From: a virus
Reading direction: 5' to 3' (one strand)
Length of the DNA stretch: 64,000 nucleotides
UHGV virus genome: UHGV-0018629
Below the pieces are notes generated by a model that made no database searches, had not been told where the DNA came from, and saw only the letters and a program-made list of their open reading frames with translations. Made by a program: the position numbers and the translations under genes. Below are positions 1 to 54,112 of the stretch, one piece after another; the first letter of the stretch is position 1; the number at the start of each line of letters is the position of its first letter.

Positions 1-365
1 TTACTCTGGTAAAACATTCCAGTAATATCATCTATCGTGCTTTGAATGGCTGGAGGCATTTCTTTGTAAATGCTGTTAGATTGGTCTAGTATGTGATCAA
101 TCATTTTAATTGTATCGGTAGGAAGTTTACTAGCATCTGGAATTGAAGGAGTGTATTTTCTACCAGAATACCCTAAATACTGCTCACCAAATTTGTCAAT
201 CAAATCTGGTAACTCAGAAAAAATAAAATCGTATGCTTTGTGTCTGGCATAACTTTTAGTTTCAAAATGTGCAGAATGAAAATAAGCTTGTGCAGCCATT
301 AATAAACCTAAGTATTCATCTGCCTTTGAAGGTTTTCCACTTTGTGAAAAGTCGCTGAATTTCAT
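1..365 (-). CDS. Hypothetical protein, partial (start at 365, runs off left edge); begins MKFSDFSQSGKPSKADEYLG
   Basis: Open minus-strand frame from ATG at 365-363 to window edge; ATGA overlap with stop of rI-like gene; not in supplied ORF track because truncated. Confidence 0.5.
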   Translation of the reverse strand, partial: MKFSDFSQSGKPSKADEYLGLLMAAQAYFHSAHFETKSYARHKAYDFIFSELPDLIDKFGEQYLGYSGRKYTPSIPDASKLPTDTIKMIDHILDQSNSIYKEMPPAIQSTIDDITGMFYQS

Positions 366-655
366 TCAGTCTCCAATTTAATGTTCATAATTCTAGCGTA
401 TGATTGTGCCATCTCCGCGCCTCGTTCTATACATTCAAAATCAGAAGAGCACGGGTCATTTTTATAGGTCGTTCTCATAAAACTATAGAATTGTTCAGAC
501 GATTCTACGCTTTTGTTTTCAAAAAGTGTATAAACATGCCTAATACCAGATTCCATAAATTTATCAAAATGAGGGTCAACATTCGCTTCAATCGATGGAG
601 ATAAAACAAATGACAATCCTAGCATGGCAAACAGTGCCGTTGCTTTTAAGGCCAT
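362..655 (-). CDS. rI: RI antiholin-like lysis-inhibition protein, 97 aa, N-terminal signal-anchor
   Basis: 97 aa, hydrophobic N-terminus LFAMLGLSFVLSPSIEA, position downstream of tk as in T4. Confidence 0.75.
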   Translation of the reverse strand: MALKATALFAMLGLSFVLSPSIEANVDPHFDKFMESGIRHVYTLFENKSVESSEQFYSFMRTTYKNDPCSSDFECIERGAEMAQSYARIMNIKLETE

Positions 656-2359: not shown

Positions 2360-2703
2360 CTAGTACTCAATCCTCGATTATAAGAATCTACTAAACGGTC
2401 AACCATTGAATGACAAGCGGCTTTGTCTTTTTCCTCCGCAACTGAGCATTCTAAGGTATTCCACTTTTTAGCATATCGTTTTAATAATGTATCGTTTTTG
2501 TATCTACTTGTCTTATCTCTTTCTCCGTCTTTATATGCATATATTAATTTCTGCGCAAACTCAGATTGACATGCTTTATTTTTCCCACAATAATCTGCCG
2601 CAGTGCGGTTCACATACTCCCTAATTTCAGTATATGATGTATCTGCTGACGCATAAGCAGAAAATGAAATTAATCCTATACATAAAACCAAAATTTTAGT
2701 CAT
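2356..2703 (-). CDS. vs: Secreted small protein (Vs position and length: 115 aa)
   Basis: 115 aa with cleavable-looking signal peptide MTKILVLCIGLISFSAYASA; position between macro-domain gene and regB as T4 vs. Confidence 0.45.
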   Translation of the reverse strand: MTKILVLCIGLISFSAYASADTSYTEIREYVNRTAADYCGKNKACQSEFAQKLIYAYKDGERDKTSRYKNDTLLKRYAKKWNTLECSVAEEKDKAACHSMVDRLVDSYNRGLSTR

Positions 2704-3241
2704 TTACTATTTCCAAAAGTTTATTATTTTTAAGGTAATTAGCCTTTTCTAGGACTTCAGAAGCATATTTAGAACCTGCTTTAACATTCCATCCCGAATT
2801 ATAAGAGGATATTGCTTTTCTTATATCACCCTTATGTATATTTAACCAATAAGAAAGTTCAATGTACGCCCATGAAGCTGAATTGGATCGTTTATTCAAC
2901 ATTCTTTTTATTTCAGCATCGGTCATATTATAACCAAGTTCCTTAACTCTTGCTCGCATAGTAGGCAAATAATTTTGGAACATTCCATAAGCGTGATGCT
3001 TTGGTTTAGATTTTAAATTAACTCCGCCAGAGCTTTCTTGCCATAAAATGGCTGCCATTATATGACCTAATCCACTCTTATGAACATTTTGGTGTGTTTT
3101 ATATTTTCCATCCTTAGAAAATTGTTCCCCGAATTGATATGCGTAACGCATGTTATCGAGTTGGACATTACTGAAAGTATGCTCGGAGCTATGTGCCATC
3201 ATAGAAATGGCCAATAGACCAGCGAGTAGTGCTTTTCTCAT
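2696..3241 (-). CDS. Secreted lytic transglycosylase-like protein (vs.1 position)
   Basis: 181 aa, signal peptide, QESSGG...AYGMFQ resembling SLT-domain ES and GLMQ motifs. Confidence 0.55.
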   Translation of the reverse strand: MRKALLAGLLAISMMAHSSEHTFSNVQLDNMRYAYQFGEQFSKDGKYKTHQNVHKSGLGHIMAAILWQESSGGVNLKSKPKHHAYGMFQNYLPTMRARVKELGYNMTDAEIKRMLNKRSNSASWAYIELSYWLNIHKGDIRKAISSYNSGWNVKAGSKYASEVLEKANYLKNNKLLEIVND

Positions 3242-3248
3242 GTTTACC

Positions 3249-3710
3249 TCATTGAGTTTTAATTACTGCTTTAGAAGCCTTTCCTGGTAAACGACGACTG
3301 TTGATAATTGCCATCCTGCATTGAAGTGACGGGTCTTTGAACTTCTCATTAGGTTTACAAACCGTAAATCCAAGCCAAAGATTTCCATCAGTGATTTCTA
3401 AACGTCCAGGGCGATATTCAATTCCATCGATAAAATCTTCATCAATATCAGGACGCGGAGGCATACTCAGGAATTCATTAACTTCTAAAACATGGTCTTT
3501 TATTTTATGGAATAATTCAAAAACGTATGTCTCATCAATCTCCCGTTGAATTGCGCGATCAAGAAGATGTTGAGAATATTTTAGATGAAACGATGAGACC
3601 CCTGCTGCTTTTGATGCCTCACGAATCTCATTGTTAATTTGACGAAACTCCGACTCAAAGTGACGACGAAGCTTATTTCGACGGATAAAAACTTCTGTGT
3701 TGATAGTCAT
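3249..3710 (-). CDS. regB: RegB sequence-specific endoribonuclease
   Basis: 153 aa, N-terminus MTINTEVFIRRNKLRRHFESEF matches T4 RegB as recalled; conserved position. Confidence 0.85.
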   Translation of the reverse strand: MTINTEVFIRRNKLRRHFESEFRQINNEIREASKAAGVSSFHLKYSQHLLDRAIQREIDETYVFELFHKIKDHVLEVNEFLSMPPRPDIDEDFIDGIEYRPGRLEITDGNLWLGFTVCKPNEKFKDPSLQCRMAIINSRRLPGKASKAVIKTQ

Positions 3711-3769
3711 ATTATTCTCCTCTTAACTGATAGAAAAATTATACCACAGTCAAGAGGAAAAGTAAACAG

Positions 3770-4090
3770 TTATTCTTTAAATCTGATCAATTTATTCATA
3801 GACTTTGAAACTTCTGCACGAACCTCATGTAGATTTTTGAGCTGCTCAAGACGCTGCGCATAGTAAGCAATTTCATCTTCTTCAAGACAGTCCTGCGAAT
3901 CTTCTTTAAGATAGCGTGCATAATCCTGGAAAGCATTACGAATTACTTCTTGGAAGTCGTCAAGACTTTGAATTTTCTTAGGAGCGGAAGATACACGACG
4001 AGGTACAGTATAATACTCATAACCAAACCCTGCGCTTAATTGAGCCATTAATATTTTTCCTCTGGTTGGAACACAGCACGGCAAGCCCAC
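3770..4090 (-). CDS. Hypothetical protein (start may be at internal Met near 4048)
   Basis: ORF in regB-downstream block. Confidence 0.4.
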
Positions 4091-51953: not shown

Positions 51954-53372
51954 TTATGGATAAGTATAGATGATACCAGTTTCTAAAGCAGTTTTATGAA
52001 TGATGTATCCATTACGTGATTCTTGAACATCAACTTCTGGATAGTCTTTCATCATCTTCTGAAGAGTGTAACGATGCAGGTAGTATTTACTATCTGGATC
52101 TTCAGTTTTCCAATCTTTACCTTCTTCGGTCATTTTTTGGATTTCATCCATAACCCACCAACCGCACCAGATGTAAGCTGAAGTACGATGTGGAAGAGGA
52201 TGGACATAAGGCAATTCACCTTCCGGTTCTGGAGCAACTTTATTAGTTACTTGAACTTGACCAGTCGCTTTAACTGTTTTACTATCATAGTCAGTTGCAG
52301 TAACAGTTGCAGTAACTTCAATAGTTTGACTTCCAATAGATGATGTATCAACTGTATACACATTAGTCGATCCTTCTACAGGAGAAGAATCTTTCTTCCA
52401 TGAATAAGTAATTTGCGCTGCTTCAGGTGCGCCAGTGACATTAGCTGTAAATGTAGCCAAAGCATCTTGCTGAACGTTAATAGAAGGAGGAGTCAATGTA
52501 ACCTGTGGATTCATTGTTTTCTTATTAACTGTTAATGATACTTCATTAGAAGTAACTTCCTTTTCATTATAATTTTCAGCAGTTACTTGCGCTACGCATT
52601 TAATTCTTTTTACTCCACTTGTAGTTGGAGTATAGTTAAATGTAGAGTTAGTTTCTCCACCAACTTGAGAATCATCTACATACCATTTATATGTAGCAGA
52701 CGCTCCATCAGGTTGAGAAGCTAAGGCAGCAGTAAATTGAACTGGGGTTCCAATTACTCCAGCTGAAGGACTAGCAGGAGTTACTGCCAATGTAGTTGTC
52801 TGTGTCTTTTTATTAACAGTCAGTGACACTTCATTAGAAGTAACTTCCTTTGCATCATAATTTGTCGCGGTTACTTGAGCTACACACTTAATTGTTTTAA
52901 CTCCGCTTGTAGAAGGAGTGTAATTGAATGTAGCAGAAGTCGCTTCGTCTACAGGAGAACCGTCAACGTACCATTGATACGTAGCAGATGCACCTGATGG
53001 CTGCGAAGCTAAAGCAGCGGTAAATTTAACAGCTGTTCCAATTACTCCTGCTGGAGGACTATTGGGAGTTACGGCTAAGGTAGTCGTCTGAGTTTTATTT
53101 TTGACTGTGATAGTTGTACTAATTTCAGCTGTTTCAGCTTCAGATTCTGGAACTGTGTTTGTTGCAACTACTTTAATAGTCTTTTGACCGGCAGGTCCTT
53201 TTAATACATAACTAAAAGTTGCTTCAGCTCCATCTTGTGGAACATCATCTACACTCCAAGCATATGTAATAGTTCCACCTCCAGTTTCACCACTGGGTGC
53301 AGCAGTAAACTGCTGAGTCTGATCTATAACTCCAGTAGGTGTTTTAGGAGTTATATCAACTGTAAAAGCCAT
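51954..53372 (-). CDS. hoc: Highly immunogenic outer capsid protein Hoc with an extra tandem Ig-like domain
   Basis: 472 aa; repeated Ig-like domains incl. two near-identical about 97-aa units (KKTQTTTLAVTP...SNEVSLTVN); conserved C-terminal capsid-binding region; synteny. Confidence 0.85.
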   Translation of the reverse strand: MAFTVDITPKTPTGVIDQTQQFTAAPSGETGGGTITYAWSVDDVPQDGAEATFSYVLKGPAGQKTIKVVATNTVPESEAETAEISTTITVKNKTQTTTLAVTPNSPPAGVIGTAVKFTAALASQPSGASATYQWYVDGSPVDEATSATFNYTPSTSGVKTIKCVAQVTATNYDAKEVTSNEVSLTVNKKTQTTTLAVTPASPSAGVIGTPVQFTAALASQPDGASATYKWYVDDSQVGGETNSTFNYTPTTSGVKRIKCVAQVTAENYNEKEVTSNEVSLTVNKKTMNPQVTLTPPSINVQQDALATFTANVTGAPEAAQITYSWKKDSSPVEGSTNVYTVDTSSIGSQTIEVTATVTATDYDSKTVKATGQVQVTNKVAPEPEGELPYVHPLPHRTSAYIWCGWWVMDEIQKMTEEGKDWKTEDPDSKYYLHRYTLQKMMKDYPEVDVQESRNGYIIHKTALETGIIYTYP

Positions 53373-54062: not shown

Positions 54063-54075
54063 AATATTTCCTCAG

Positions 54076-54083
54076 TATAAATA
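54076..54083 (+). promoter_or_regulatory. Late promoter motif TATAAATA upstream of uvsW
   Basis: Exact octamer 30 nt upstream of uvsW ATG. Confidence 0.5.
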
Positions 54084-54112
54084 TAGATATATTTATTACA
54101 TGGTATTTAGAC

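Follow-up and report, generated by a model that had tools for sequence, protein, structure and literature searches.

A tandem Ig-like domain repeat in the Hoc capsid protein of a T4-like phage

Introduction

The C-terminal domain of T4 Hoc binds the centre of each major-capsid-protein hexamer, with one molecule per hexamer. There are 155 Hoc fibres on a T4 capsid, each 180 Angstrom long, and the number of Ig domains in Hoc homologs ranges from 1 to 10 (PMC10385173). We analysed a 64,000-nucleotide stretch of the virus genome UHGV-0018629 (hereafter the window), for which an earlier note, made from the sequence alone, had proposed that the hoc gene contains an internal tandem duplication of an Ig-like domain and that the protein, at 472 aa, is one domain longer than that of T4. 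Here, we establish the layout of the protein, ask how common its architecture is among related phages and what types of unit it is built from, and weigh several explanations for the extra unit.

Results

Identity of the gene and its locus

The protein encoded by the open reading frame in question (Table 1) matched T4 Hoc in the PDB (5vf3_Z, 376 aa) at an E-value of 5e-218 and 'Hoc-like head decoration' in the PHROGs at 1.6e-139 (both PHROG 21694 and PHROG 1149 match), and the gene is 94% identical at the nucleotide level to annotated Tequatrovirus hoc genes. Pfam PKD scored 43.1 bits on the protein (cut-off 23.5) and Ig_2 was also above its cut-off, with Ig_3 and I-set slightly under theirs. 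Window residues 377–472, which include the C-terminal anchor, align with T4 Hoc 281–376 with few changes, and the columns of the anchor are mostly invariant across 53 homologs. The genes in this part of the window are, in order, rnlB, a 24.2-like gene, a 24.3-like gene (DUF2774), hoc, inh and uvsW, and the order rnlB-24.2-24.3-hoc-inh-uvsW is common to T4, phage G28 and the window. The near-identity of the anchor, the PHROG match and the gene order identify the gene as a hoc of the T4 type, and because the anchor domain is nearly identical to that of T4 Hoc, the protein would be expected to sit on gp23 hexamers as in T4.

Several other features of the locus can be compared with T4 and G28. A terminator-like hairpin follows the hoc stop codon (Table 1), and the G28 record has a terminator annotated at the same place, after hoc. 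The homing endonuclease gene segE, which lies between inh and uvsW in T4 and G28, is missing in the window, where the gap between these two genes is only 50 nt (54063..54112). The window contains 26 copies of the T4 late-promoter motif TATAAATA, where 9.8 would be expected. A scan of the window found no exact copy of TATAAATA immediately ahead of inh-hoc on the strand of hoc; the closest one (54076-54083, plus strand) lies just upstream of uvsW on the opposite strand and faces that gene.

Layout of the repeat and of the domains

Tandem Repeats Finder (TRF) reported 2.0 copies of a 288-nt period at 52515-53090 (79% matches, score 719), and an ungapped repeat finder paired 52515-52802 with 52803-53090 at 78% identity. 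When the protein was compared with itself, an offset of 96 residues gave 106 identities, against about 20–45 at most other offsets and 59 at an offset of 95. The proposed internal duplication is borne out by all three comparisons, although its description needs adjusting: the two units are indeed adjacent, but each is 96 rather than about 97 residues long; they cover residues 93–188 and 189–284, the second thus ending at 284 and not at about 286. Compared in frame, they share 77.4% of their nucleotides and 81.2% of their amino acids (78/96), with a longest exact run of 24 nt. Calling them nearly identical overstates a protein identity of 81%; the DNA identity measured was 77–79%. Every Ig domain of the protein ends in the linker motif TV(x)NK(K)T, and it is within this motif that the similarity starts and stops, which leaves the position of the junction uncertain by a few codons.

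Aligned end to end, T4 Hoc and window Hoc differ in architecture by exactly one 96-aa unit, with T4 residues 1–103 corresponding to window residues 1–103 and T4 93–376 to window 189–472, both without gaps. An equal domain count in this alignment would have contradicted the reading of 472 versus 376 aa as one extra domain; instead, one unit was left over. An AlphaFold2 (AF2) model built with 53 homologs (mean pLDDT 84, with low confidence in the C-terminal domain) placed four beta-sandwich domains (residues 1–91, 93–188, 189–284 and 285–376, pLDDT about 90) before the C-terminal domain, in agreement with the domain count, while its pTM of 0.53 leaves the geometry between domains uncertain. A Foldseek search of the PDB returned four-Ig proteins, such as Dscam and ICAM-5. 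The order of domains in window Hoc is confirmed as Ig domain 1, two domain-2 units (of the types termed alpha and beta below), Ig domain 3 and the C-terminal domain. Domain 3 also contains a short tandem repeat (Table 1), of which one homolog (P0030, 468 aa) has exactly one VTAT fewer, in what looks like a slipped-strand deletion of a single repeat.

Table 1. Coordinates of hoc, its domains and neighbouring features in the window.
Feature	Coordinates	Strand	Residues	Basis
hoc open reading frame, 472 aa, five domains, stop codon included	51954..53372	-	1-472	
Ig-like domain 1	53097..53372	-	1-92	sequence; AF2 strands 3-91, pLDDT 83-92
Domain-2 unit 1, alpha type, the unit that T4 is without	52809..53096	-	93-188	nucleotide identities
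Domain-2 unit 2, beta type, counterpart of T4 domain 2	52521..52808	-	189-284	nucleotide identity, dS, DNA clustering
Ig-like domain 3 (T4 numbering)	52239..52520	-	285-378	aligns with T4 189-282; AF2 strands 290-376; sub-cut-off Pfam Ig_3/I-set
C-terminal capsid-binding domain	51957..52238	-	379-472	PHROG 21694; pLDDT low off the capsid
12-nt tandem repeat CAGTTGCAGTAA, 2.1 copies, encoding VTATVTAT, inside domain 3	52292..52316	-		TRF
Terminator-like hairpin AAGGGGCTTCGGCCCCTT with T run, 5 nt past the hoc stop codon	51932..51949	-		pattern scan

Prevalence of multi-unit Hoc

Among the best 120 cluster representatives of the protein database (90%-identity clusters), Hoc proteins fell into length classes of 376 aa (n=78), 472 aa (n=29) and 568 aa (n=7), the rest being one-off lengths. 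For phage records, we took 60 rows spread over the 659 matching records, which yielded 52 full-length hoc genes. A two-unit gene (span of 1419–1425 nt) was present in 18/52, including ime09, O157 typing phage 7 and slur04, and a one-unit gene (span of ~1131 nt) in 34/52, including T4, T2, RB51 and RB10; no three-unit gene occurred in the 60-record sample. Two-unit genes were counted by their span in the record (1419 versus 1131 nt) and not by query coverage: even a gene with one domain 2 can show a coverage of 100%, as that domain aligns to each of the two query units. The database entries closest to window hoc, G28 (94% nt) and BF15 (96% aa), have the same architecture. The two-unit Hoc is a common, old allele, carried by about a third of the full-length Tequatrovirus hoc genes sampled. 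The type counts given below rest on cluster representatives at 90% identity together with the 60-row sample, which fall short of a full census.

Some records needed individual inspection. Shigella phage KNP5, whose hoc spans 2072 nt, was considered as a gene of four or more units and rejected, since the span includes a run of N over the repeat. In its RefSeq record (L002, NC_055713.1; 1730..2730), the Ns coincide exactly with the domain-2 region of hoc, and the Hoc annotation is limited to the 588 nt at the 3' end; the assembly appears to have been broken by the hoc repeat. In Escherichia phage F2 (H96, MN864145.1), the hoc match at 118305..119147 is only 843 nt long, 288 nt short of 1131, and so points to a Hoc of the Tequatrovirus type with one Ig domain missing. 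Many Hoc entries, assigned to Escherichia coli or Shigella sonnei, carry the name 'PKD domain-containing protein', and one, assigned to Shigella sonnei, the name 'endonuclease'; these misnamed or uninformatively named entries come from T4-like phage genomes in bacterial assemblies, on contigs of ~165–170 kb.

Types of domain-2 unit and their exchange

To compare units across phages, we cut 159 of them from 115 database proteins and window Hoc by fixed coordinates for each length class. At the protein level they formed three clusters distinguished by the C-C' loop, namely alpha (SPVxEATxA), beta (SQVGGETNS) and gamma (SLVDGETTT). The 21 units with DNA formed the same three clusters, with 87–97% nucleotide identity within a type, 77–83% between types and a dS of about 1.0 between alpha and beta. 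A division into three types is a simplification because the units are mosaics, as seen in beta/alpha hybrids that group with alpha in the protein clustering and with beta in the DNA clustering. By loop signature, 31 single-unit genes have an alpha unit, 29 a beta unit, 11 a gamma unit and 6 a beta/alpha hybrid, and the three-unit genes are alpha+beta+gamma (4) or variants of it (3). The two-unit genes are alpha+beta (22), alpha+gamma (3) and alpha+hybrid (2), with one alpha+alpha, one beta+gamma and one further gene, P0040.

The order of the units is nearly constant. Of the 37 multi-unit architectures, as classed by loop signature, 34 begin with alpha and keep the order, the three exceptions being P0031 (alpha+alpha), P0038 (beta+gamma without alpha) and P0040 (a foreign second unit). 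Nowhere among the 37 does alpha lie downstream of beta or gamma, or gamma upstream of beta. This constant alpha-beta-gamma order may reflect shared ancestry and not independent events.

Closely related genes differ by whole units. The domain 1 sequences of P0101 (gamma only; Yersinia phage fPS-65 type), P0033 (alpha+gamma) and P0038 (beta+gamma) are at most 2 nt apart, and P0033 is separated from P0101 by one clean 288-nt indel and is 99% identical to it elsewhere. The alpha unit of P0033 is in turn the same as that of UGKSEcP1 (100%), although their domain 1 sequences are only 88% identical. Units in the first position have an alpha-type 5' end even where the body is beta (L007, P0038 and, in part, T4), which is what unequal crossing-over between units would leave. 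The T4 unit is itself a mosaic, alpha-like at its 5' end and in the F-G loop and beta-like in its body, so that the T4 form may have arisen by either gain or loss. As read from these gene comparisons, unit-precise recombination is shown to add, remove and swap 288-nt units. In two hybrid Hoc proteins, P0041 (567 aa) and P0040 (472 aa), the Ig domains that come after a Tequatrovirus alpha unit share only ~56% identity with the usual units, which looks as though recombination had brought domains of a more distant Hoc into the array.

We propose that domain 2 in Tequatrovirus is a copy-number-variable cassette array, in which one to three units of types alpha, beta and gamma stand in a fixed order. 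In this view, homologous recombination over the nearly invariant unit borders (KTQTTTLAVTP ... VTSNEVSLTVNKK) leads to the in-frame loss, gain or swap of 288-nt units.

Variable sites and possible consequences for adhesion

The 18 positions at which the two window units differ in amino acid are hypervariable in the set of 159 units, with a mean entropy of 1.40 bits against 0.18 bits elsewhere. About 19 sites have an entropy of at least 1 bit, and 14/19 of these are in predicted loops, with the scaffold almost invariant. Both window units carry the S-L-T triplet (S183, L184 and T185), which is essentially invariant across the 159 units; in domain 2 of the Hoc of phage PNJ-9, S183/L184/T185 are reported to bind MUC2 and to form the fucose/MUC2 site (PMC11853027). 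Domain 1 of window Hoc carries E29 and G33, reported as MUC2-binding residues in the Hoc of phage PNJ-6, where MUC2 is bound by domain 1 and not by domain 2 (PMC11150434). Because domain 2 of PNJ-6 did not bind MUC2, an adhesive role of domain 2 is not general.

An extra unit would lengthen the fibre by about one Ig domain, from ~180 to ~225 Angstrom, a length that is an extrapolation because the inter-domain geometry of the AF2 model is uncertain (pTM 0.53). It would also add another variable surface made of loops, with the S-L-T motif retained, and this surface would tune adhesion to mucus or glycans, aggregation behaviour and the antigenic face of the capsid. The most likely role of the extra unit, we infer, is to provide a longer capsid fibre together with one more variable, putative glycan-binding surface. 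Published work (PMC11853027, PMC11150434, PMC13435897) makes it plausible that, as the earlier note suggested, the number of Hoc domains could alter binding to surfaces.

The extra domain might instead have no function of its own, its copy number being a nearly neutral by-product of Ig-module recombination and the domain itself a spacer at most. Such neutrality would fit the facts that hoc is non-essential (PMC10580926), that one-, two- and three-unit genes co-circulate in otherwise similar phages, and that Klebsiella T4-like phages vary analogously in domain 3. We nevertheless consider it unlikely, if still a serious contender: both units are under purifying selection (dN/dS 0.10) with intact folds (predicted pLDDT about 90), and change is concentrated in ~20 sites, mostly in loops, as expected of a binding or antigenic surface and not of a spacer. 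That both units are constrained speaks for a domain that is folded and exposed, but not for a ligand of its own.

Age and ancestry of the two units

Window units 1 and 2 differ at 65/288 nt, and 42/65 of these mismatches are at third codon positions. Their dS of 1.12 is near saturation (dN 0.115), whereas dS between the hoc genes of different Tequatrovirus phages, measured in domain 1 and the C-terminal domain, is 0.1–0.37. Unit 2 is 90.3% identical in nucleotides to T4 domain 2, with a dS of 0.25 that equals that of the flanking domains; unit 1 is only 77.8% identical to T4 domain 2 (dS 0.93), which makes it as distant from the T4 domain as from unit 2. The relatives of unit 1 are the first units of other multi-unit genes (G28 96%, L006 86% and UGKSEcP1 84% nt) and the single unit of P0107 (91% nt), and unit 2 is 96–97% identical to the second units of G28 and L006. 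By these distances, the unit that is extra relative to T4 is the first one, and it is not a fresh copy of T4 domain 2.

These measurements bear on the simplest account of the repeat, a recent tandem duplication in this phage lineage, with a single copying of a T4-type domain 2 and the start of divergence between the copies. That account would explain why two units of exactly 288 nt stand side by side in the same frame, and why T4, the reference phage, has one unit. We reject it as very improbable, since the inter-unit dS lies far above that between the hoc genes of different phages, each unit is closer to units of other phages than to its neighbour, and single-copy alpha-type genes exist. Because the inter-unit divergence is near-saturated and each unit has closer relatives elsewhere, the duplication is neither recent nor lineage-specific; the substitution patterns show the window units to be old paralogues, both under purifying selection.

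Hoc repeats do upset assemblies, as in KNP5, but a single domain 2 falsely expanded by the assembler is rejected here as scarcely credible, because units that differ at 65 positions are not one sequence read twice and the two-unit form is found in many independent isolates and metagenomes. Equally far-fetched is a diversity-generating retroelement with one unit as its template repeat and the other as its variable repeat, which two ~80%-identical repeats, a surface Ig-like protein and clustered variable sites might bring to mind: the mismatches are not adenine-linked in either unit (15/65 and 28/65) and mostly hit third codon positions, both units are translated within one open reading frame, and the neighbours of hoc that were identified are rnlB, 24.2, 24.3, inh and uvsW.

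Discussion

Window Hoc belongs to a series of related architectures. It shares with T4 Hoc (376 aa; PDB 5vf3, 8t1x) the gene, the locus, domain 1, domain 3 and the capsid-binding domain, but T4 has a single domain-2 unit, of beta type with mosaic ends, to which the window protein adds an alpha unit upstream. The 472-aa Hoc proteins of vB_EcoM-G28, BF15, ECO4, ime09 and O157 typing phage 7 have the same five domains with alpha+beta, and differ from window Hoc only as alleles do, mostly at hypervariable loop sites. UGKSEcP1, UGKSEcP2 and metagenomic relatives encode a 568-aa Hoc in which the first unit is alpha and the second beta-like, as in the window, but a third domain-2 unit (gamma or a beta variant) brings the total to six domains.

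Beyond these close relatives, Klebsiella phages PMBT63 and Marfa also have four Ig-like domains and a capsid-binding domain, but are only ~46–50% identical to window Hoc, and in PMBT63 the four-Ig Hoc-like protein goes with mucin retention (PMC13435897). In Marfa Hoc (471 aa) it is domain 3 that is duplicated (D3-D4 77% aa), as opposed to domain 2 in the window. We compared the domain copies of Hoc proteins from IMG/VR by pairwise domain alignment, a blastp self-comparison having given no off-diagonal matches, and found domain-3 copies that are 77% and 57% identical in amino acids in the Klebsiella T4-like phages L011 (Marfa, 2501..3916) and L010, respectively, whose relatives have shorter genes. 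The Klebsiella duplication is an independent event, because domain 3 and not domain 2 is doubled. Other loci encode two-Ig Hoc forms of 279–282 aa. In more distant lineages, the Hoc of PNJ-9 (283 aa) is without domain 3 (PMC11853027) and that of Serratia phage Muldoon (1174 aa) has 10 Ig domains (PMC10385173), and both keep the C-terminal anchor; the number of Ig domains in Hoc can thus go down as well as up. Variation in the number of Hoc domains among T4-like phages is already published, and the finding in the window is real, well explained and ordinary.

Taken as a whole, the probable explanation, in which we have good confidence, combines a five-domain fibre, two old and constrained paralogous units, a recombining cassette array of domain-2 units and a putative tuning of adhesion. 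Our searches of the literature that is openly searchable, which covers few subscription journals, found no description of the Tequatrovirus domain-2 duplication, its unit types or a cassette array, and the cassette-array view of domain 2 may be the only part not yet in print.

A further reading, which we put forward tentatively, is that the ordered alpha-beta-gamma array, polymorphic for the presence and absence of its units, might be reshuffled by co-infecting phages through unit-precise recombination, producing a combinatorial repertoire of capsid Ig domains that mucosal glycans or host antibodies would maintain through diversifying or balancing selection. If this were true, the domain-2 array would be the capsid counterpart of adhesin or antigenic cassette variation.

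For the window phage itself, the finding shows only that it carries the common two-unit allele, and opens no new question. Hoc is, however, the display and vaccine scaffold of T4 and a model protein for phage adherence to mucus, and the presence of one to three exchangeable units matters for the choice of therapeutic phages with regard to mucosal retention, for longer display fibres and for serological cross-reactivity.
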